From Eledone cirrhosa (taxonomy: Eukaryota), in contig OZ024741.1 in NCBI GenBank assembly GCA_964016885.1, positions 179,366,001 to 179,430,000 on the forward strand: 64,000 nucleotides of DNA. The letters are read 5' to 3'. The stretch's first letter is position 1. Every line of letters starts with the position of its first letter. Below are positions 16,031-62,889 of this stretch, one piece after another. Under the pieces are notes generated by a model that worked only from the letters and a program-made list of their open reading frames with translations, searched no databases and had not been told where the DNA came from. Position numbers and translations under genes: made by a program.

Positions 16031-16226
16031 TTATCCTGGGTTCAATCGGGGGGGTAACCACAGTAAGGTAGTCAATACATAGCAGAGTATAAAAATTTAA
16101 TATAGAAATGGCTTCTACAAAACTAAAACTGTTTCATTCTGGGGAAATCATCAGGAAAGCCTGGGCATTCCTGATGATTCCTCCCGAATGAAACAGTTCT
16201 AGTCCTGTAGAAGCCATATTTTATAT
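16031..16226. mobile_element. Short fold-back hammerhead element (family B), head-to-head inverted copies in (TA)n
   Basis: Minus copy 16162-16031 and plus copy 16163-16226; ggc(a/t)ttc-CTGATGA-...GAAT-GAAACAG-ttctagtc-CTGT-A-gaagcc. Confidence 0.72.
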
Positions 16227-21186: not shown

Positions 21187-21890
21187 TCTTTGAGTTTAAG
21201 TAAATATTGTTCAGAGATGACAAACCTTGTAAAGGAGTCCCACATAAAATCTATTTGAATGGTACCAAGATATGTTGTTTATGTCTGGATATTATAAGGT
21301 TTGTCATCTCCGAACAATATTTACTTGAACTCAAAGAGCAAAATGTTTAGGGGATGGCTCCATCTCAAAACCCAACTGCTTGCTAAGTGAAAATATTCAA
21401 CAAATTCGGCTGATTTTGAACCACCTTAATTTGATTTATATACTTCTGTTATATCATTCTTTCTCTTTCCACACTTACATAATACAATACACTTTCTATA
21501 CTACTATACTCCATACCTTAATAAATATTACCATCTCTATATTACATTCCACCACATAATACAATACTTCTGCTATAGTATAAGAACACAAACATATGGT
21601 CGATCTCAAATTTCAAAATTTACATCTTGGAGTTATTTCCCTTTGTTATATTAGGGTCTTTTTCATAAACACGCGCTCTTCACAAACTTTACTTTTAACA
21701 GTATATTATAAACTTGTATAAGTCCCTGAAGAAAGGTCTCTAATTTGATGCCTTTGTATTCTGGAAGTATGGTCAAGTTTGGGCCTTGAAACTTTGTTCT
21801 ATGCACAAACATAAAAAAATAATATAACATTTCTGCTCTTTTCCCTATTGAGCACTGTTTTCCTTTTCACACCTACGGATATAGACACAC
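21187..21890 (+). mobile_element. Decayed second PLE: endonuclease C-terminus, small 5' inversion and degenerate hammerhead
   Basis: 21242ff translates HKIYLNGTKICCLCL..., then after a frameshift YLNSKSKMF (cf. FCNLCILE...LLNRKSEIF); 21187-21232 inverts 21291-21338; CTGAAGA-AAGGTCT...GGGCCTT-GAAAC at 21726-21792. Confidence 0.6.
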
Positions 21891-24227: not shown

Positions 24228-24414
24228 GGTATGACCCCGACGGCAGAGCTCAAGCCGTTTCGACAGCTATTTCTGGACGCAGTCCAAAAATAGCCGTCGA
24301 AACGGCTTGAGCTCTGCCATTGGGGTCATACCTTTTCCTATTCCCACTCTACTACCTTAAGTATTGACTACTCTGGTGCGTTATGGTCCATCTGGTTCCT
24401 TACCACAATTCCTT

Positions 24415-24418
<4 letters not shown>
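24223..24418 (+). mobile_element. Palindromic half-hammerhead element (family A) in (TA)n
   Basis: ~55-bp inverted arms (24223-24336) plus a tail; right arm has GAA-ACGGC-ttgagctct-GCC(A)T-T-gggg, a decayed stem III and cleavage site. Confidence 0.7.
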
Positions 24419-24471
<53 letters not shown>

Positions 24472-25170
24472 ATTTATGTTAGGCTGTTTACCAATGGGTA
24501 GAACTGGCGGCTCCTGTTTGTATATATATACACACCATAACACACCAGAGTACTCAATACTTAGGGTAGTAGAGTGGGGTAATTGGAAAAGATATATATA
24601 TATGTCATCACCGTTTAATGTCTATTTTCCTTGCTTACATGAGTTAGACAGGCTGTCCCCCCTTACAAAGTGGGTTGGGTACTTTTTGTTGTGGCACCAA
24701 TACAACCATCTTACTTTTATATAGTGGTTGTTGAACCTCCATTAGCTCTGCCAAGGAAAATTTTAGTTGTTTGAACAACAGAACAACCTGCTGCAAGGAA
24801 TTGAATGCTCATTGAGCTGAACACCCTTAACTCAAACCCCCATGCCTTTATATATATATACTTATGGTAAATATTGATGCAATTCAATTCAAGCATTCAA
24901 CATACTTTTTCCACATAGGAATGATGGAGTATATTCAGAATAAGTTTCAGATGTTAAAGTCCTTTATTGATAAGGCCGTGATACCAACAGTGACCACACA
25001 ATTCCGCATACCCAGTGCCATGATCTCATCAGACAGCTTCTTACATAATAAGGTTACGTTCTCAAGGAAATCCAAATTAAAACGACAAGGGAACGGACAA
25101 AGATGATGTTCTTAAAGCCTTCACCCGTTCCCTTGTGAGCCCTAATTGTTCTCTCTCTCTCATATATATA

Positions 25171-26710: not shown

Positions 26711-26817
26711 ATATAAACAAGGTTTAGTAAATAATGAAAAAGTTTCAAAATAAATTTTAAAAAATTGACTTTACCTACTATAGTTACCTTTACCGATCGG
26801 TTTCGAATCCCAAAAAT
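26711..26817 (-). repeat. Inverted partial copy of the 483-bp unit (equivalent to 27086-27192) at the array's 5' junction
   Basis: atataaacaagg...taccgatcggtttcgaatcccaaaaat is the reverse complement of the unit segment spanning the 3' half of the hammerhead. Confidence 0.92.
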
Positions 26818-27033
26818 TACTACTACCTCCACATACGTTGAGAACAAACCGGGTCATTCCGACTGCTGCTGATAACAGCGGTGGCTAGTTCGACCTACCT
26901 CCTTTTGCCTCTATCTTTACTACGGCCCTTGATAAACCTGTTCTACATCATCCACTCTCATCCCAGGAACAGTCTTTGATAGCGCTGGTTTGTGATTTAA
27001 ATTCAGGAATTTTATATTCTTTGAATGAAAAGA

Positions 27034-27117
27034 ACCTTCTGACGAGAATCTCTCTTTGCAACGAAGGCCGTATGGCCTACGTTTTATTTTTGGGATTCGA
27101 AACCGATCGGTAAAGGT
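27034..27117 (+). ncRNA. Type I hammerhead ribozyme, unit 1
   Basis: Stem I ACCTT/AAGGT; core CTGACGA; stem II GAATCTC/GGGATTC with a long insert; GAAA; stem III ACCG-at-CGGT (palindrome ACCGATCGGT); cleavage after GUA (27112). Confidence 0.88.
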
Positions 27118-27516
27118 AACTATAGTAGGTAAAGTCAATTTTTTAAAATTTATTTTGAAACTTTTTCATTATTTACTAAACCTTGTTTATATTTGTTCTG
27201 GCTCGTTAATTTATTAACCCGCCATTGAACCACACTGGCACTTGGTTGGACAATACATGCGTACCTTGACGCCTTGTGCGTGAAAGGACGTATTTCATAT
27301 TACTACTACCTCCACATACGTTGAGAACAAACCGGGTCATTCCGACTGCTGCTGATAACAGCGGTGGCTAGTTCGACCTACCTCCTTTTGCCTCTATCTT
27401 TACTACGGCCCTTGATAAACCTGTTCTACATCATCCACTCTCATCCCAGGAACAGTCTTTGATAGCGCTAGTTTGTGATTTAAATTCAGGAATTTTATAT
27501 TCTTTGAATGAAAAGA

Positions 27517-27600
27517 ACCTTCTGACGAGAATCTCTCTTTGCAACGAAGGCCGTATGGCCTACGTTTTATTTTTGGGATTCGAAACCGATCGGTAAAGGT
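27517..27600 (+). ncRNA. Type I hammerhead ribozyme, unit 2
   Basis: Same sequence as the unit 1 motif, +483. Confidence 0.88.
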
Positions 27601-27999
27601 AACTATAGTAGGTAAAGTCAATTTTTTAAAATTTATTTTGAAACTTTTTCATTATTTACTAAACCTTGTTTATATTTGTTCTGGCTCGTTAATTTATTAA
27701 CCCGCCATTGAACCACACTGGCACTTGGTTGGACAATACATGCGTACCTTGACGCCTTGTGCGTGAAAGGACGTATTTCATATTACTACTACCTCCACAT
27801 ACGTTGAGAACAAACCGGGTCATTCCGACTGCTGCTGATAACAGCGGTGGCTAGTTCGACCTACCTCCTTTTGCCTCTATCTTTACTACGGTCCTTGATA
27901 AACCTGTTCTACATCATCCACTCTCATCCCAGGAACAGTCTTTGATAGCGCTAGTTTGTGATTTAAATTCAGGAATTTTATATTCTTTGAATGAAAAGA

Positions 28000-28083
28000 A
28001 CCTTCTGACGAGAATCTCTCTTTGCAACGAAGGCCGTATGGCCTACGTTTTATTTTTGGGATTCGAAACCGATCGGTAAAGGT
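28000..28083 (+). ncRNA. Type I hammerhead ribozyme, unit 3
   Basis: Same sequence as the unit 1 motif, +966. Confidence 0.88.
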
Positions 28084-28482
28084 AACTATAGTAGGTAAAG
28101 TCAATTTTTTAAAATTTATTTTGAAACTTTTTCATTATTTACTAAACCTTGTTTATATTTGTTCTGGCTCGTTAATTTATTAACCCGCCATTGAACCACA
28201 CTGGCACTTGGTTGGACAATACATGCGTACCTTGACGCCTTGTGCGTGAAAGGACGTATTTCATATTACTACTACCTCCACATACGTTGAGAACAAACCG
28301 GGTCATTCCGACTGCTGCTGATAACAGCGGTGGCTAGTTCGACCTACCTCCTTTTGCCTCTATCTTTACTACGGCCCTTGATAAACCTGTTCTACATCAT
28401 CCACTCTCATCCCAGGAACAGTCTTTGATAGCGCTAGTTTGTGATTTAAATTCAGGAATTTTATATTCTTTGAATGAAAAGA

Positions 28483-28566
28483 ACCTTCTGACGAGAATCT
28501 CTCTTTGCAACGAAGGCCGTATGGCCTACGTTTTATTTTTGGGATTCGAAACCGATCGGTAAAGGT
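28483..28566 (+). ncRNA. Type I hammerhead ribozyme, unit 4
   Basis: Same sequence as the unit 1 motif, +1449. Confidence 0.88.
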
Positions 28567-28749
28567 AACTATAGTAGGTAAAGTCAATTTTTTAAAATTT
28601 ATTTTGAAACTTTTTCATTATTTACTAAACCTTGTTTATATTTGTTCTGGCTCGTTAATTTATTAACCCGCCATTGAACCACACTGGCACTTGGTTGGAC
28701 AATACATGCGTACCTTGACGCCTTGTGCGTGAAAGGACGTATTTCATAT

Positions 28750-28782
<33 letters not shown>

Positions 28783-28784
<2 letters not shown>

Positions 28785-29535
28785 TCTCCTCTTCCGACCA
28801 TCTCTTCATGGAATACTCACATGTGGAACTTGACCACCGTGGAATCTACTACCATCATAGGAGTTTACCAACATTTCAACCACATCCTCTTACGGAATCA
28901 CCTATATAACTCACCCACACACACACCCACAACACGCTTAAACCCCACACGCACGTGCTTTCCACCACATATTTACACCTTCAGCCTCCGGATTCCTCTC
29001 CCCCCACCCCTCTATCCACACACGCACACACACTCCGACCTACACCCCACCCACACACACCTCTTCCTGAAAATGCAACCCCGTTCTTCCCCCAACCCTT
29101 GCTTTCACATACACACATACACACGTACACCTACACACACACACCACCTTCAGCCCTCCTCGCTCGGACACCCCGTCTCCCTCTCCCCACCCGCCACCAC
29201 CCCTACACACCCTTCCACCACCTGTTTTACCCCTTTTTAATTTCAGTTTATTTTGATCATGCTTTTATATTTATTTTTATTTCATTTCATTTAATTTTGA
29301 TCATGCTTTATTTTTATTTTCATTCGCACCAATTCCTCCCACCCCCTTTTCGCTATATGTCTCTCCACCACTCCCCTACACACCCTTTGAACTCTCTTCC
29401 CACACACTTCTCACCTGAGGAAGGGCTTATGCCTGAAACGTCGTTCCCCACCACCACCCCACTCTCCAGAGCATGAAATTAATAAACATTCGTTGTACTG
29501 CCTCTCTGTTTTGTTCCTGTTCAAATTTTCCATTA
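28783..29535 (+). mobile_element. Probable PLE 3'/pLTR remnant with a minimal hammerhead (29412-29445)
   Basis: ac-CTGAGGA-AGGGC(ttat)GCCT-GAAACGTC-gt followed by AATAAA; C/A-skewed UTR-like sequence; TA tracts on both sides. Confidence 0.6.
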
Positions 29536-35390: not shown

Positions 35391-35536
35391 CATATATACA
35401 TATATATATATATATACATATATACATATATATACATATATACATATATATACATATATATACATATATATATATACATATATACATATATATACATATA
35501 TATATACATATATACATATATATACACATATATATA
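34946..35536. repeat. (TA)n/(TACA) microsatellite, ~0.6 kb
   Basis: Direct inspection. Confidence 0.97.
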
Positions 35537-35728
35537 GGAAAAAGTATGACCCTGACGGCAGAGCTCAAGCCGTTTCGACAGCTATTTCTGTCCAGAAATA
35601 GCCGTCGAAACGGCTTGAACTTTGCCGTCGGGGTCATACATTTTTCCTATTACCCACTCTACTACCCTAAGTATTGAGTACTCTGGTGCGTTATGGTCCA
35701 TCTGGTTCCTTACCAAAATTCCTTTGTT

Positions 35729-35730
<2 letters not shown>
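35537..35730 (+). mobile_element. Palindromic half-hammerhead element (family A) in (TA)n
   Basis: Same family as 24223 with a shorter loop; GAA-ACGGC-ttgaacttt-GCCGT-C-ggggtcatac; tail contains gtattgagtac. Confidence 0.72.
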
Positions 35731-48995: not shown

Positions 48996-49370
48996 TTTTA
49001 AGCAGACAGTATTATTGATTTAGGTGTCGCAGAAACCCTGTACTGGATTTTACCATCAATTCTAAGGGTCCAGGTTTGCTATATATATATACATATATAT
49101 GTTTATATATATATATATATGAATATGTCATTTATTTTGTCTGATCTGTTTAGCTTGACTTGATTTTTGGCTTAGGTAGTTAATGGCTTCTTGACCGCCT
49201 TCTCAGTTTGTATGCCCTTTATAACCTATGTTCATTACTCTGGTCTTTTTAGCCCATGGAGCACTTGCCAGCATGACTCAGAATTTGCGTTACGTTTCGC
49301 TTTTTCTACCCGCCGAAATGCGATTGTAGCTGAATTTATATTTATATATATTATTATTATATATATATAT

Positions 49371-49542
49371 AAGTTATTTCGGGTTGAATCGGAGGTAACC
49401 ACAGTAAGTAAGGTACTCAATACATAGAGTATAAAAGTTTTAATATAGAAGAGCTTCTACAGGACTAGAACTGTTTTATTCGTGAGAAATCATCAGGGAA
49501 CTCCCTGATGATTTCTCTAGTCCTGTAGAAGCTCTTCTATAT

Positions 49543-49546
<4 letters not shown>
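49371..49546. mobile_element. Short fold-back hammerhead element (family B), second copy
   Basis: Homologous to 16031-16226; inversion centred at catcagggaa|ctccctgatg; the plus arm has an internal deletion; TA flanks. Confidence 0.7.
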
Positions 49547-49585
<39 letters not shown>

Positions 49586-49645: not shown

Positions 49646-49757
49646 CAGGATAGAACCAGTTTAAAACTAGTTAGACCACCACTCAACAGAGTACTCGGTA
49701 CTTGAGGTTGTAGAGTATGGCTATATTATAAAGAGTCGGGTCCCAACATTTTATAAT
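49646..49757 (-). repeat. Short TA-embedded element (family C), related to the family A tail; second copy at 62719-62830
   Basis: caggatagaaccagttt...agtactcg.tactt....gtagagtatggcta occurs twice, both times between TA tracts. Confidence 0.65.
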
Positions 49758-49934
49758 ATATATATATATATAAGGTTGGCATCCCAAAGCAGATCGGATT
49801 ATAACTACAGTTAAATAAAGTACTCAATGCGTTAGCAGAGAATTAGCATATTTATTTTATATAGAAATGAAATAGTTCTAGTCCGGTAGTAGTTAATTCT
49901 ATTATATATATATATACACACACACATTTATGAA

Positions 49935-50068
49935 AATGTTCAATACCCCGACGGCAGAGATCAAGCCGTTTCAACGGCTATTTCTGGACTATTACCCACT
50001 CTACTACCCTAAGTATTGAGTACTCTGGTGCATTATGGTCCACCTGATTCCTTACCACACTTCCTTCG

Positions 50069-50071
<3 letters not shown>
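49935..50071 (+). mobile_element. Family A element with the right arm deleted
   Basis: Left arm accccgacggcagagatcaagccgtttc joined directly to the tail tattacccactctactaccctaagtattgagtac. Confidence 0.65.
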
Positions 50072-50107
<36 letters not shown>

Positions 50108-55210: not shown

Positions 55211-55429
55211 TACACATGCATGCATGTATATAATGGCTGCATCTCAGTTTCGAGAATTGCCATCCCTTGGACACCATATCAAGGATTTCCATGTCCAGTA
55301 TATATAAGAGTGTGTTTGTGTGAGTGTAAGTATAAGTATGTATATATATATGTATATATATATATATATTATTAAAAAATTATAAAAATTATAAAAAATA
55401 AACAAAGAAGCCTTCAATACATCAAAAGT

Positions 55430-55486
55430 CTTTATTAGCTGACAGTGTTTCGTCCCATTAATAGGGACTCATCAGAGCAAGTAAAG
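55430..55486 (-). ncRNA. Minimal type I hammerhead ribozyme in the inverted PLE arm
   Basis: Reverse strand reads GCT-CTGATGA-GTCCC(tattaat)GGGAC-GAAAC-act-GTC-AGC with a perfect stem II. Confidence 0.88.
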
Positions 55487-56602
55487 AGACAAGAAGTATT
55501 AACGGCCAGAACAAACCAAAACTCAGAAGAACAGGGAATTTATATCTATGAAAACTTAGGAAAGACATCATGTAAATATATGCTAAAGCTAAAAGTGTGT
55601 ATTTGCAAATATAGACTATAGGGCAAGAGAGCGAGTAATATGTCAAACCCACGTTGAAAGTACAGTATAAGACAAATACATGAAACACAACATGGTAATA
55701 CAATGTGAGAATTATAATAAGATATAGAATACAATATAATGGATAATGAATACAATATAATGGATAATAAGAAATAAAAAGCTTAATATATATATATATA
55801 TATATATATATCCATATATATACACATTTACACAGACACATACTAACACTTATTTAAATATTTAAATATAAATAAACTCTTTATAATATAATAATCATTA
55901 TAATAGAATAACCACCCTGACGGTGTGCATAAACAATACCAAAAACAATGGAATAATATACTGACATTACAAAATATATAAAACTACATCATACGTATCA
56001 TTTAAGGTCAACAATTTGTATATAAAGTTTTTCACAGGGTAAGAAAAAATATCAAATAAAAATAAAGTATGGTGAAAAAAATATATATAAATATATATAA
56101 TATTGACAATAAATATACAGAGGTATAGGCAGTTCAAATTCATAAAATATTACAAAACAGTACCTCAATATCGGACATATATTTATAATTCAATTACATA
56201 AAAATAATATGACATATTAATGTTAATATTACAATAGCAGACACAGAATCAATGGAAAATGCTTAAGACATATTTACGCGATGAACACAAGGAGACATAT
56301 TATGAGACAATAACAGATGATAGGAAAACAGACAGCATGTGGTAGTAAAAAATAAATAAAATAAAAACGAAGAACAAAAACAAAAACAAGCACAGACACG
56401 TAGGCGTTACAAGTCATTAGGTAAATATAGATGATATTACTATTCTAAATCAAAGAATTGAATTGAAAATCTTATTAAATTAATTAATACTAAAATTGTT
56501 TAAAAGACATCATGGGTCACTTCACATTCAACAGAACCCAAGTCATCAAAGTCGAATAAAATCAAGATATTTCAATAAAAAAGCTAAAAGATCTATCAGG
56601 AT

Positions 56603-58894
56603 ATATTACGATCCGTCCCGACGAATAACGTTATCAAAGAAAAACTTAAGAATATTGTTAAGGATGTTAAAGGGAATAAGTCTATTCTTGTCCCGGCTGA
56701 CAAGACTAAGAATCTTTACTCTATGGATTATATTGCCTACCGTAATTTTATTTATAAGGAGCTACATAAAAATTACAAAAAGACAACGCAGGATAATTTA
56801 GATCAAATTAATAATGAGGGCCTCAAGATAGTTTCCGATCTGGGTCTTGATAAGTATACCCAACCATATTACGCCAGGGAACCGAGATTCACACTTAAGG
56901 ATCATAAGGTAGACTTCTTAAGTAATCCTACTGTTAGACTTATCAGTCCTTCTAAGTCTGATATAGCTATAATTAGTAAGAAAATTCTTGACCTGATTAT
57001 ACCTACCGTTAGGGAAAAGGTTCATTTTAATCTATGGGGGAATACTGTGGATGTTATTGATTGGTTCTCTGGTATTAATAAGCTTAAGTCTAGTAAGTTT
57101 ATCCAGTTTGATATAGACGCCTACTACACGTCGATATCACCTATCCTCCTTAATAAAGCCTTAATTATGGCCATGCGAATGTCTAGTCTTACGAGACCCC
57201 AGATTGATGTTATACTAGCCGCCCGTAGGACTATCATCAAATTCGAGGATACACTTTGGACGCGTAAAAACACACCCAACAACTTTGACGTTACCATGGG
57301 TTCGAGTGATTCTGCGCAGGTAACTGATCTTGTTGGGCTGTACCTCTTGAACGAACTTTATGTTAGCTTTCCGCACCTTAAAGGTGGACTTTATCGTGAC
57401 GATGCATTATTTGTGATAAACTCTAGTACTAATAGCATTGAACATACTAGGAAGAAGTTATATAAATTTTTTTTAAATGTTAACCTTTCGATCACGATTG
57501 ATAAGAATGATAGAGCAGTTAACTTTTTAGATGTGACATTGGACTTGGTCACTAATGATTATAAACCCTTCCACAAGCCAAATGAGACACTCTCTTACGT
57601 TAATCCTAATTCCAACCACCCTAATTCTATGATTAGTTCTATTATTAATGGTGTATCTAATAGAATCTCCACACTCTCTAAAAATATAGGAATCTTTAAT
57701 TCACATGCTGAGTATTATAATAATGCCCTAACCAATTCTGGTTACTCTGGTAGAATACATTATAAAGATGACAATCTTGGAATTACTCCGATTACCCATA
57801 ATAACGTGATATCCCATAATATGGCTTTGAACGGGAGAAGAAAATTTAGGAATCATAGAAATTTTATAGATATATCCAAACCGAACCCTATGTATAGCTA
57901 CCGCAATAGTAATCGTAATAGTCAGTCTAATGGTACACATTTCGAGATTAGTTCTAATAGGCACGATAGGCGCTATGTACGTTCACCCAGTGGTAATGTT
58001 TTAACGGCTTCTAATAGTGTTAATTCAACTGGTCCTCGTATTAACCCTGATCCTAATAATAGGATACGAGATAGAAATAGAAATAGTAAAGGTAAGAATA
58101 GGAGGAGGCTCAATACTTACTTTAACCCGCCTTATAATCATGAAGTATTAACTAATATCCCTAGGTCTTTCTTTTCTATTTTAGAGAAAAATTTCCCTCC
58201 TACTAATAAATACCATAGTGTCTTTAATAAGAATGTAATTAAACTCTCCTTCTCTACCACCTCTAACATTAATTCTCATCTAGCTAGTACTAATAATAGG
58301 AAAATTAGGGACAGCTACTGCTCTTTGCTTACCATTAATCTAGATAGCTCTAATAATAACTTACCACCCGAGCAGATCTTATCTTCTAATAACCCTAGGA
58401 ATAATGCATCGCGTAATCAGCTAATCACTAGTACCCGGAAGTGTAACTGTAGATTAAGTAATAACTGCCTTTTGAATGGTCACTGCCTCTCTATGAATAT
58501 TGTTTATGCATGTGAAGTTAAGACTAATTCTTCTTGTAGAACATATATAGGCTCCACATCTAATACTTTAAAAACTAGGTTTAATTCACATGTTTCTAAT
58601 TTTAAGCATATCAAGTTTAAGAACTCTACTTCTTTGGCACACCATATCTGGGATTTAAAAGGGGCTGGTATACCATATAGCCTAAATTGGCGTATAGTAG
58701 CACAATCTAATCACCTTTCAACACACGCTAAATTCTGTAATCTTTGTATCTTAGAGACCCACTCTATAATTTTCTCTAGGAACGTATTACTTAATAGAAA
58801 ATCTGAAATATTTTCGTCCTGTCCGCATGCTATTTCTAATTCCTTCTTCTATTATAGACCTAAAAACTCTGGTAGTTTAAACCGCATCCATTAG
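56603..58894 (+). CDS. PLE reverse transcriptase + GIY-YIG endonuclease (N-terminally truncated; frame is open upstream of Met 56723)
   Basis: VPADKTKNLY upstream of the Met, TLKDHK, RLISPSKS, FIQFDIDAYYTSI, FDVTMGS, GLYRDD, VNFLDVTLDL, FNPPY, CNCR..CLLNGHC, IVY...TYIG, RFNSH, CNLC..E, LLNRKSE...CPH; no stops or frameshifts. Confidence 0.95.
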   Translation: MLRSVPTNNVIKEKLKNIVKDVKGNKSILVPADKTKNLYSMDYIAYRNFIYKELHKNYKKTTQDNLDQINNEGLKIVSDLGLDKYTQPYYAREPRFTLKDHKVDFLSNPTVRLISPSKSDIAIISKKILDLIIPTVREKVHFNLWGNTVDVIDWFSGINKLKSSKFIQFDIDAYYTSISPILLNKALIMAMRMSSLTRPQIDVILAARRTIIKFEDTLWTRKNTPNNFDVTMGSSDSAQVTDLVGLYLLNELYVSFPHLKGGLYRDDALFVINSSTNSIEHTRKKLYKFFLNVNLSITIDKNDRAVNFLDVTLDLVTNDYKPFHKPNETLSYVNPNSNHPNSMISSIINGVSNRISTLSKNIGIFNSHAEYYNNALTNSGYSGRIHYKDDNLGITPITHNNVISHNMALNGRRKFRNHRNFIDISKPNPMYSYRNSNRNSQSNGTHFEISSNRHDRRYVRSPSGNVLTASNSVNSTGPRINPDPNNRIRDRNRNSKGKNRRRLNTYFNPPYNHEVLTNIPRSFFSILEKNFPPTNKYHSVFNKNVIKLSFSTTSNINSHLASTNNRKIRDSYCSLLTINLDSSNNNLPPEQILSSNNPRNNASRNQLITSTRKCNCRLSNNCLLNGHCLSMNIVYACEVKTNSSCRTYIGSTSNTLKTRFNSHVSNFKHIKFKNSTSLAHHIWDLKGAGIPYSLNWRIVAQSNHLSTHAKFCNLCILETHSIIFSRNVLLNRKSEIFSSCPHAISNSFFYYRPKNSGSLNRIH

Positions 58895-59940
58895 CTGCTA
58901 TATTTCCTTATCTCTTTGGTTTTAGTTCATTATTATCACCATTATTAGTTTTCTACGGTTTTTCGTTTTTAGTTTTCATAGTCTTTTTAGCTATCTTACC
59001 CTATCTATCATCTTAACCATTATTACATTTTTACTCACCATTGTCGCCTTATAAGTTCCTATCTTTATTTTCATCCCTGGTTGGAGGGTATCTTATTGAA
59101 TAGTTTAATTTTAGTCTCCTACATCTAAGGCTAATGAACCTCGTCCTTTCTACACCTAATAGATCTTTTAGCTTTTTTAGTGAAATATCTTGATTTTATT
59201 CGACTTTGATGACTTGGGTTCTGTTCCATGTGAAGTGACCCATGATGTCTTTTAAACAATTTTAGTATTAATTAATTTAATAAGATTTTCAATTCAATTC
59301 TTTGATTTAGAATAGTAATATCATCTATATTTAACTAATGACTTGTAACGCCTACGTGTCTGTGCTTGTTTTTGTTTTTGTTCTTCGTTTTTATTTTATT
59401 TATTTTTTACTACCACATGCTGTCTGTTTTCCTATCATCTGTTATTGTCTCATAATATGTCTCCTTGTGTTCATCGCGTAAATATGTCTTAAGCATTTTC
59501 CATTGATTCTGTGTCTGCTATTGTAATATTAACATTAATATGTCATATTATTTTTATGTAATTGAATTATAAATATATGTCCGATATTGAGGTACTGTTT
59601 TGTAATATTTTATGAATTTGAATTGCCTATACCTCTGTATATTTATTGTCAATATTATATATATTTATATATAGTTTTTCACAATACTTTATTTTTATTT
59701 GATATTTTTTCTCACCCTGTGAAAAACTTTATATACAAATTGTTGACCTTAAATGATACGCATGATGTAGTTTTATATATTTTTTAATGTCAGTATATTA
59801 TTCCATTGTTTTTGGTATTGTTTATGCACACCGTCAGGGTGGTTATTCTATTATAATGATTATTATATTATAAAGAGTACATTTATATTTAAATATTTAA
59901 ATAAGTGTTAGTATGTGTCTGTGTAAATGTGTATATATAT

Positions 59941-60036
<96 letters not shown>

Positions 60037-60331: not shown

Positions 60332-60388
60332 CTTTACTTGCTCTGATGAGTCCCTATGAATGGGATGAAACACTGTCAGCTAATAAAG
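60332..60388 (+). ncRNA. Minimal type I hammerhead ribozyme in PLE 3' region
   Basis: GCT-CTGATGA-GTCCC(tatgaat)GGGAT-GAAAC-act-GTC-AGC; stem I extends via cttta/taaag; GUC cleavage triplet. Confidence 0.85.
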
Positions 60389-60595
60389 AATTTTGATGTA
60401 TTGAAGGCTTCTTTGTTTATTTTTTATAATTTTTATAATTTTTATAATTTTACGGCTCTGTTGAATTACATTGAGCTATACCTTTACTGTCATTTCTCTA
60501 ATACGACGAGTGTGTTTAACTCCAACGCACTCAAGTATTTTAATCTTATATATATATATATATATGTATGTGTATATGTATATATATATATATAA

Positions 60596-62110
60596 AGAAA
60601 CAGTCAGCAAGGTTAGAATTAACAATGAATATAGTGAAGAATTTAGCGTAAAAGTTGGTGTTCATCAAGGCTCTTTCCTTAGCTCCCTTCTATTTACTAT
60701 TGCCCTTCAGGCTATAACAGGAGTTTAAGACTGGCTGCCCATAGGAACTTCTACACACAGATGATCTAACTCTAATAGCTGAATCTATGGCTGAACTAGA
60801 GAAGGAATTCCAAACATGGAAGCAAGGCCTAGAATCAAAAGGCCTTAAAGTTAACTTGTCTAAGACTAAAGTTCTAGTATGTAGAAAAGAAAATAGGGCA
60901 CAGGTGCCCTCTGGGAAATGGTCATGCTCAGTGTGTTGGAAAGGAGTAGGTAGAAATTCCATTTTATGTCCCAAATGCAAACTATGGGTACATAAATGAT
61001 GTAGTGGGATCACAGGTAAGCTATCTAAGAACGTAGATTTTATATGTGGCCGATGCTCGGGTGCAATAAGTAGCAAGTGTGCCCACAGGATACTAGCTCC
61101 TTCTATTGCCCAGATGGTTCTATAGAAATAGTGGACACTTTCCGTTACCTGGGTGACAAAATCAGCAGTGGTGGAGGGTGCTCTGAAAGTACAGTAGCCA
61201 GAGTCAGAACGGGATGGAAAAAGTTCAGAGAGCTTATACCGCTGTTGGCCACTGAAGGTTTCTCTCTAAAAATGAAAGGCAGATTGTATGATCCCTGTAT
61301 ACAAACAGCAATGTTACATGGCAGTGAGACATGGGCATTGTGTGCAGAGGACCTGCGCAGACTGGAAAGGAACGAAGTATGCATGCTCCGTTGGATGTGT
61401 AATAGTAATATACACGAACGGCAAAATATAAATGAACTAAGTGAGAAATTAAGAATAGAGGGATCAGATGCTGTTTACTTGAGAGGAGACTACATTGGTA
61501 TGGTCACGTGATGCACATGAAAGATGACAGCTGTATAAAAAAGTGCAGTGCAATCAAAATTGCTGGAAGTTATGGAGTAAGTAGACCCAAAAAAACCTGG
61601 GACGATTTGATAAATTCCAACCTTACACACTTGCACCTCTGTAAGACAATGTCACTGGACCGAGATCTTTGGTGCCACACAATAATACAGAAGACCCGCC
61701 TTGCCTGTGTACAAAGCGAAACCTACAGTCAGTAGGCACCTCTTAACCAAATATACACCCCAACCCACTACCCCTACACCATCCTCCCACTCCCACCAAC
61801 ACCACCCTTCCTCTGTAAAGTTATGTTGGTACCACAACATCCAGTCCAAACTAATGAGGTTGTGTAGGTGTCACGACAAAAAAAAACAGTCCACGCTGTA
61901 ATGTGGTCGTGTAGGTAACACGGTAAAAAGCTCCCAGTCCACACTATAAATGTGGTTGGTGTTAGGAAGGGCATCCAGCCGTAGAAAACCTGCCAGATAG
62001 TCCTATATGAGCGAGACATGGTCACCCAACCAATCTTGCCTCAAGTGAGAGAATTCCCGTCTAACTCATACTAGCAAGGAAGATAGACGTTAAACAATGA
62101 TGATGATGAT
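60596..62110 (+). mobile_element. RTE LINE, 5'-truncated and decayed (RT C-half plus 3' tail ending (GAT)n)
   Basis: [54 protein letters not shown]; tail ...gacgttaaacaatgatgatgat. Confidence 0.9.
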
Positions 62111-62721: not shown

Positions 62722-62889
62722 GATAGAACCAGTTTTAAACTAGTTAAAGCATTACTCAACAAAGTACTCGTTACTTGGGATAGTAGAGTATGGCTATATC
62801 ATAAATAGTCAGGCCCCAACTCTTTATTATATATATCCATATATAACCCATGCTAGTGTGGAAGATGGATGTTAAATAATGATATGTAT

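Follow-up and report, generated by a model that had tools for sequence, protein, structure and literature searches.

The 3' tails of Penelope-like elements (PLEs) in the 64,000-nucleotide stretch of the Eledone cirrhosa genome analysed here (the window) contain a conserved motif which is a predicted base-paired, bulged stem, ATTGAGTAC being only its local spelling. Two such hairpin patterns (A and B) with covarying pairs are observed, element ends are fixed just 5' of each hairpin, in contrast to the scattered 5' ends, and two-armed insertions combine one end at A with one end at B. From these observations we infer RNA folding, binding by the reverse transcriptase (RT), an RT dimer and twin priming. 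It is likely that each hairpin positions one RT and that a single RNA serves both nicked strands of (TA)n as the template on which they prime, the tail representing the stretch between the two starts. There is about an even chance that the hairpins constitute a duplicated, phylum-spanning RNA docking element, through which a telomerase-related RT dimer starts on both nicked strands, on one RNA, at two programmed sites. If true, twin priming would explain the one-sided tail, the inverted pseudo-LTR (pLTR) and retrozyme mobilisation together in Hydra-clade PLEs. The small covarying candidate element, the numerical offset rule and the one-start-per-arm rule can be tested with an existing in vitro assay. 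The hairpins also tie non-coding retrozymes to PLEs through a concrete cis feature, and can be used to set element boundaries in repeat curation.

Form, enrichment and covariation of the hairpin

A sequence-only reading of the window had listed six elements with a shared motif in their tails. The motif is present in all six, and their alignment by eye yields a single form, consisting of N-CUC, a stem-loop of 2-4 bp, a 2-nt bulge and GAG-N'. The motif is a covarying bulged hairpin and no linear box, and full-length units usually contain two copies of it. A short conserved stretch, most often ACU, usually flanks the hairpin on its 3' side. An unbiased sample of 800 kb from the 3.0-Gb genome (80 stretches taken at fixed steps from four chromosomes) contains 33 occurrences of the complete structural pattern, compared to 2-4 per local dinucleotide shuffle (n=5). 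In the sense strand of 78 related loci from marine metagenomes, drawn from the best 80 of 370 confirmed, the pattern density is 3.06/kb upstream of the ORF versus 0.31/kb within ORFs.

Covariation was evaluated on 81 unique anchors from the 78 metagenome loci, picked without regard to inner pairing. Inner pair 1 is Watson-Crick in 74/81 anchors (50 C-G, 24 T-A) against a permutation mean of 58.5, inner pair 2 is paired in 54/75 (mean 30.4) and inner pair 3 in 41/53 (mean 20.6), each with p ~5e-5, values which are optimistic since the families are related by descent. Inner pair 4 (20/44 paired, permutation mean 15.3) shows no significance. Switches are also evident at the two outermost positions, the outer pair being G-C, A-T or T-A and the second pair C-G or T-A; only the switch counts as evidence here, as pairing at these positions was required by the pattern. 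The bulged stem is returned by RNAfold in only 41/78 cases. MAFFT applied to 45 hairpins left loop gaps unopened. By sequence, the predicted bulged hairpin is real and conserved across Hydra-clade PLEs of marine animals. Among the best 150 of the 172 Rfam rows for the window, none of which reached the gathering score, there is nothing at 60444-60547 and no hammerhead, these rows representing microsatellite-driven miRNA noise.

A 60-nt stem-loop is inserted in hairpin B of two loci (L215:1390-1464 and L046:3446-3520), and since hairpin B tolerates this insertion, only the base of the stem appears to be constrained.

Carriers in the window and their clade assignment

The features identified in the window are collected in Table 1. 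The ORF of the window PLE is a single ORF coding for an RT with a C-terminal GIY-YIG domain, the real frame of which begins at the inversion junction near 56598; no Pfam family was matched for this ORF. DKG is changed to DKT in the window ORF and its relatives (PADKT in the window ORF and alignment A1), and the window ORF contains the CxCX5C linker as well as CxxC and CxH around E/N, and is without CCHH. These features are given as marks of the Hydra clade (DKT, CxCX5C, CxxC/CxH, no CCHH) in the text of Craig et al. 2021 (PMC8557442). The N-terminal motif is RWR in the window family and family A, and RWK in most of the A1 rows shown. As in Hydra-clade PLEs, the pLTR contains a predicted hammerhead and the insertion site is (TA)n, while the window arm (3.95 kb) and the family A period (~3.5 kb) exceed the soft "<3 kb" feature of the clade. 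The nearest anchor is P0026 (E 5e-110), and this relative (P0026/L111) matches, by eye, the hammerhead and protein of Penelope-1_NV as printed in the supplement of PMC8557442. By motifs and by this by-eye match, the motif-bearing families are assigned to the Hydra clade of EN+ PLEs. Nematis was dropped for Hydra as the clade label after comparison with the text of PMC8557442. The carriers had been taken for otherwise dissimilar hammerhead elements; the motif is indeed common to them, but the families appear to belong to one PLE clade.

Table 1. Predicted features of the window PLE, the 483-bp repeat and the other motif carriers (window positions)
Feature	Position	Strand	Remarks
Inverted arm of window PLE, ~1.2 kb	55374..56597	-	Left edge approximate (short AT repeats)
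Mirror hammerhead copy in inverted arm	55448-55475	-	Pattern match
5'-truncated ORF, RT with C-terminal GIY-YIG	56588..58894	+	Hydra-clade motifs DKT, CxCX5C, CxxC, CxH
Type I hammerhead, minimal pattern with its core at 60343	60338..60380	+	Pattern match only
Window PLE tail, short end to long end	60445..60549	+	Long end 60547-60549 in (TA)n
Hairpin A of window PLE	60455..60476	+	G-CUC / UGU-loop-ACA / UU bulge / GAG-C
Second stem-loop in window PLE tail	60500..60539	+	Family-specific; sequence differs between families
Non-coding 483-bp tandem hammerhead repeat	26711..28754	+	Inverted arm and about 4 units
Variant hairpin A of 483-bp repeat	27195, 27678, 28161, 28644	+	GUUC/GAAC
Hairpin B of 483-bp repeat	26826, 27309, 27792, 28275	+	
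Family A two-armed insertion	35534..35730	+	Hairpin A 35656-35679
Further family A insertion	49942-50075	+	Hairpin 49998-50021
Further family A insertion	24229-24423		
Family A hairpin A	24552-24575	-	
Family B two-armed insertion	49367..49556	-	Hairpin A 49415-49430, 3-nt deletion
Second family B two-armed insertion	16031-16212		
Hairpin A of 49772-49893 element	49822..49841	-	Outer pair mismatched
Hairpin A of family C	49693..49716	-	CC bulge
Further family C copy	near 62730-62800	-	
Decayed hairpin A	21835..21853	+	Upper stem broken

Families A and B are classed by sequence comparison as 5'-truncated insertions of autonomous PLEs. No link to an ORF was found here for family C or for the 49772 and 21835 elements, and no read-through, ORF-bearing copy of family C was found among the 3 and 15 of 133 matches inspected. 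The long end of family B is sharp, yet it is without a canonical hairpin B, with a plain 4-bp hairpin located 7 nt further on instead. The 3' flank letters are retained in family B (L191:1450-1470) despite the lack of a canonical hairpin B, suggesting that part of the signal may reside in the single-stranded flank. Hammerhead elements do not all carry the motif: no hairpin is found at the hammerhead-bearing element end in (TA)n at 29400-29535 (the 29415 element), which probably belongs to another PLE clade, nor in several families of a hammerhead census that missed the known window family and thus undercounts. This distribution suggests that the hairpin may be restricted to the Hydra clade.

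Several further features of these elements were observed. At G000:C1:91474419-91487271, at least four units of family A with open frames follow one another head to tail with a ~3.54-kb period. The family A hammerhead (L219:1350-1440) has a U3-A8 core in place of C3-G8 and a long stem II, the U3-A8 variant being known in schistosome PLEs (PMC4209133). A 310-bp hammerhead repeat in tandem (L072:3649-4800; L010; L078), which ends in (TA)n, contains at most a degenerate motif. The linker of the window PLE protein contains Asn/Arg-rich insertions relative to its relatives, at 57780-58100 and 58330-58430, and N-rich inserts have been reported in rotifer PLEs (PMC3846280). (TA)n runs also occur inside the 3' region of the window PLE itself (59905-60035 and 55790-55830), and the element therefore carries its own target. 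A decayed LINE-like RT fragment (60590-61700) adjoins the (TA)n junction of the PLE.

The 483-bp repeat, which the sequence-only reading had missed and a variant scan exposed, has a hairpin A in which C-G is replaced by U-A. Its unit has a longest frame of 81 aa and a type I hammerhead pattern, and identical copies occur at many loci, with 40 fully identical matches to a 241-bp part of the repeat among those scored. On these characters the repeat appears to be very young and retrozyme-like, and would fit the class of non-LTR retrozymes, described as short non-coding tandem hammerhead units in the literature consulted on this class.

Element ends and two-armed insertions

Two hairpins are located between the hammerhead and the AUG in 26/32 metagenome intervals and one in 6/32, with at least one in 32/32, the 32 distinct intervals including about six near-duplicates. 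A single hairpin is found in L163, while the second hairpin is degenerate in L174 and L176. Hairpins A and B are spaced 55-83 nt apart in the read-through references (29 unique), 99-102 nt in the window family and 114 nt in the 483-bp repeat. In metagenome units a hairpin lies 15-42 nt upstream of the AUG.

The motif was stated to lie near the TA junction, and is located 32-73 nt before the microsatellite junction, with a distance of 21 nt in one truncated copy. The element ends are fixed relative to the hairpins: in five families of the E. cirrhosa genome, 120/156 element-microsatellite junctions fall within -9..0 of a hairpin, a zone which contains only 19/126 of the TA dinucleotides of the references. 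The remaining 36/156 junctions outside the zone are partly alignment noise in AT runs. The motif is hence both enriched (33 versus 2-4 in shuffles) and fixed in position, the two properties on which the sequence-only reading had let its proposal stand or fall. At nearly all junctions 2-4 nt are common to the element and the (TA)n target, and the offset of the ends is given as a range because the ends overlap this TA microhomology. B ends are over-represented among the window-family and family A loci, as these loci were fetched with tail queries.

Nine metagenome junctions from eight families end at -2 to -7 from a hairpin. This set excludes four rows of M144, which match through TA alone, and a single row of M114 at -18. 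Also excluded are seven rows with ends 43-86 nt upstream of hairpin A, of which six represent hammerhead-only homology between different families and the seventh is L118. In the 483-bp repeat, which served as an out-of-sample case, 15/16 distinct 3' ends are located at a hairpin, at -2 from hairpin A and -3 from hairpin B, while 21 5' ends are scattered.

The second hairpin is missing from most insertions because its position is just beyond the long end. Copies of the window PLE elsewhere stop either just before hairpin A or ~95 nt further on, and 3/30 fetched copies of this family (L004, L005, L015) read through from the tail to hairpin B and the AUG of the next unit. The long end of the window PLE lies 4-7 nt 5' of hairpin B, and the outer end of its inverted arm is a short end, just 5' of the expected start of hairpin A. 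An inverted arm that stops just before the motif had been described where such an arm exists, and this holds for the window PLE and families A and B. The MFE fold of 60445-60549 returns hairpin A.

One end at hairpin A and one at hairpin B is the arrangement in 58/59 two-armed insertions (59/60 rows, one insertion being listed twice, in the window and in L273); the exception is a single A+A insertion, and B+B was found in none. The tail, which occurs on one side only, is the stretch between the two ends, one short and one long, in 58/59 insertions. Among the 58 insertions in the arm-length set, which leaves out the window/L273 duplicate and the A+A case, the longer arm is A in 20 and B in 14, and the arms are about equal in 24. 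In 8/58 the B arm does not extend past site A, as expected for two enzymes on one RNA. Fold-back (snap-back) copying of the B-started cDNA was considered as a source of the second arm and rejected, the A arm often being far longer than the B arm (881 v 95, 1534 v 185 and 775 v 34 nt).

Proposed initiation at two hairpins and comparison with known systems

In the proposed mechanism, a read-through RNA from a tandem unit would serve as the template and the GIY-YIG domain would nick both strands of the (TA)n target. An RT docked at hairpin B would be primed by one strand and an RT docked at hairpin A by the other (twin priming), probably as an RT dimer, with each RT beginning to copy about 2-8 nt upstream of its hairpin. 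Head-to-head joining of the two cDNAs would generate the inverted arms and leave the A-to-B stretch as a one-sided tail. As a start hairpin would not be copied by its own start, hairpin A is confined to the tail, and hairpin B occurs in read-through copies only. Hammerhead repeats which are non-coding but keep both hairpins would be mobilised in trans. If twin priming holds, a portable tag of ~20 nt would determine at which nucleotide an arbitrary RNA is written into (TA)n, and may serve as a start-site tag for RNA-templated insertion tools.

The motif had been proposed as a shared cis signal for RT recognition, 3'-end formation or promoter function. The shared signal and its probable link to RT use are retained, the ends being fixed relative to the motif, while the two other options fare less well. 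Hairpins that direct RNA 3'-end formation, through cleavage or termination just upstream, with the RT then starting at the free 3' end, would likewise give fixed ends 5' of a conserved stem. Such processing appears improbable, as it predicts A+A and B+B insertions (1/59 and none seen) and fits poorly with the strict one-end-per-hairpin rule, and the Poseidon_Ac (PAc) RT initiates internally on unprocessed RNA (PMC11167929).

It is also unlikely that it is as single-stranded DNA or antisense RNA that the hairpins work, either being recognised by the endonuclease or stopping synthesis on an antisense template. Hairpin B is not part of the inserted DNA, the sense strand carries the hammerhead and snap-back of the B-started cDNA is excluded by the arm lengths, even though the D. 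virilis tail is needed for endonuclease recognition, as cited in PMC11167929, and an antisense template has been proposed for PLEs (PMC3846280). The antisense fold of the hairpin region is, furthermore, more stable than the sense fold in 52/78 cases, and stacked G-U number 5 against 3 A-C (p 0.73, few cases).

A role in the 5' UTR as a promoter or translation element, with nearness to the ends being incidental, would suit the short distance between hairpin and AUG, and a tissue-control region has been reported near the 34-bp repeat of D. virilis Penelope (PMC2377424). Promoter function is considered very unlikely because the pairing covaries and the ends follow the motif, both copies being followed within a few nt, and the 483-bp repeat retains both hairpins although it is non-coding. 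That the ends are set by TA microhomology with the (TA)n target, the hairpins being unrelated remnants, would account for the nucleotides shared at nearly all junctions but is scarcely credible, as the few TA sites near a hairpin take most of the ends and hairpin conservation extends over families with ~35-65% protein identity.

A short 3' stem-loop selects the template for the RT in stringent LINE/SINE pairs. In L1 twin priming, two target strands prime on one RNA, with the second priming site unfixed, while in the hepadnaviral epsilon a bulged stem fixes the start site and protein priming takes place within the bulge. The Hydra hairpin would work like the LINE/SINE stem-loop without being a member of that group, as it lies beyond the copied end that it marks, and differs from LINE, L1 and epsilon in being outside the copied part, present twice and fixing both starts.

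Internal two-site initiation has already been published for another PLE clade, while the Hydra hairpins as a candidate cis signal are undescribed in the literature searched. In the only in vitro study, the PAc RT initiates internally, its two start sites delimiting the tail (Frangieh et al. 2024, PMC11167929), with RNA 3' of the start being required; it cuts and extends both target strands and a dimer is predicted, all features in which it resembles the mechanism of two RTs on one RNA proposed here. It differs in its clade and in starting inside the ORF, in a stem-loop that is AC-rich, with a binding motif that is only hypothesised. No duplicated conserved hairpin, offset rule or one-start-per-arm rule is described in the consulted text of PMC11167929, and a search of its three text supplements gave no matches; its figures S1-S2 may show a fold.

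Non-LTR retrozymes have been proposed to be moved by PLEs (PMC7229834; bioRxiv 10.64898/2026.07.22.740005), and the text consulted from these sources names no cis signal for RT use. The 483-bp repeat and Hydra PLEs have the two hairpins and the two end positions in common, as well as the structure of inverted arm and tail. No description of twin hairpins was found in the searched literature, a scope without subscription papers and Repbase notes. The tails observed here are 55-114 nt in length, compared to the 30-40 bp given for PLE tails (PMC8557442, PMC11167929). In PMC8557442 the tail is credited to endonuclease resolution, hairpins being unmentioned in the portion of its text covered here, and "hairpin" has 0 matches in its supplement text. 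Both hairpins are displayed, as seen by eye, in Hydra-1_Ajap, the sea-cucumber consensus of the Hydra clade from the same source.
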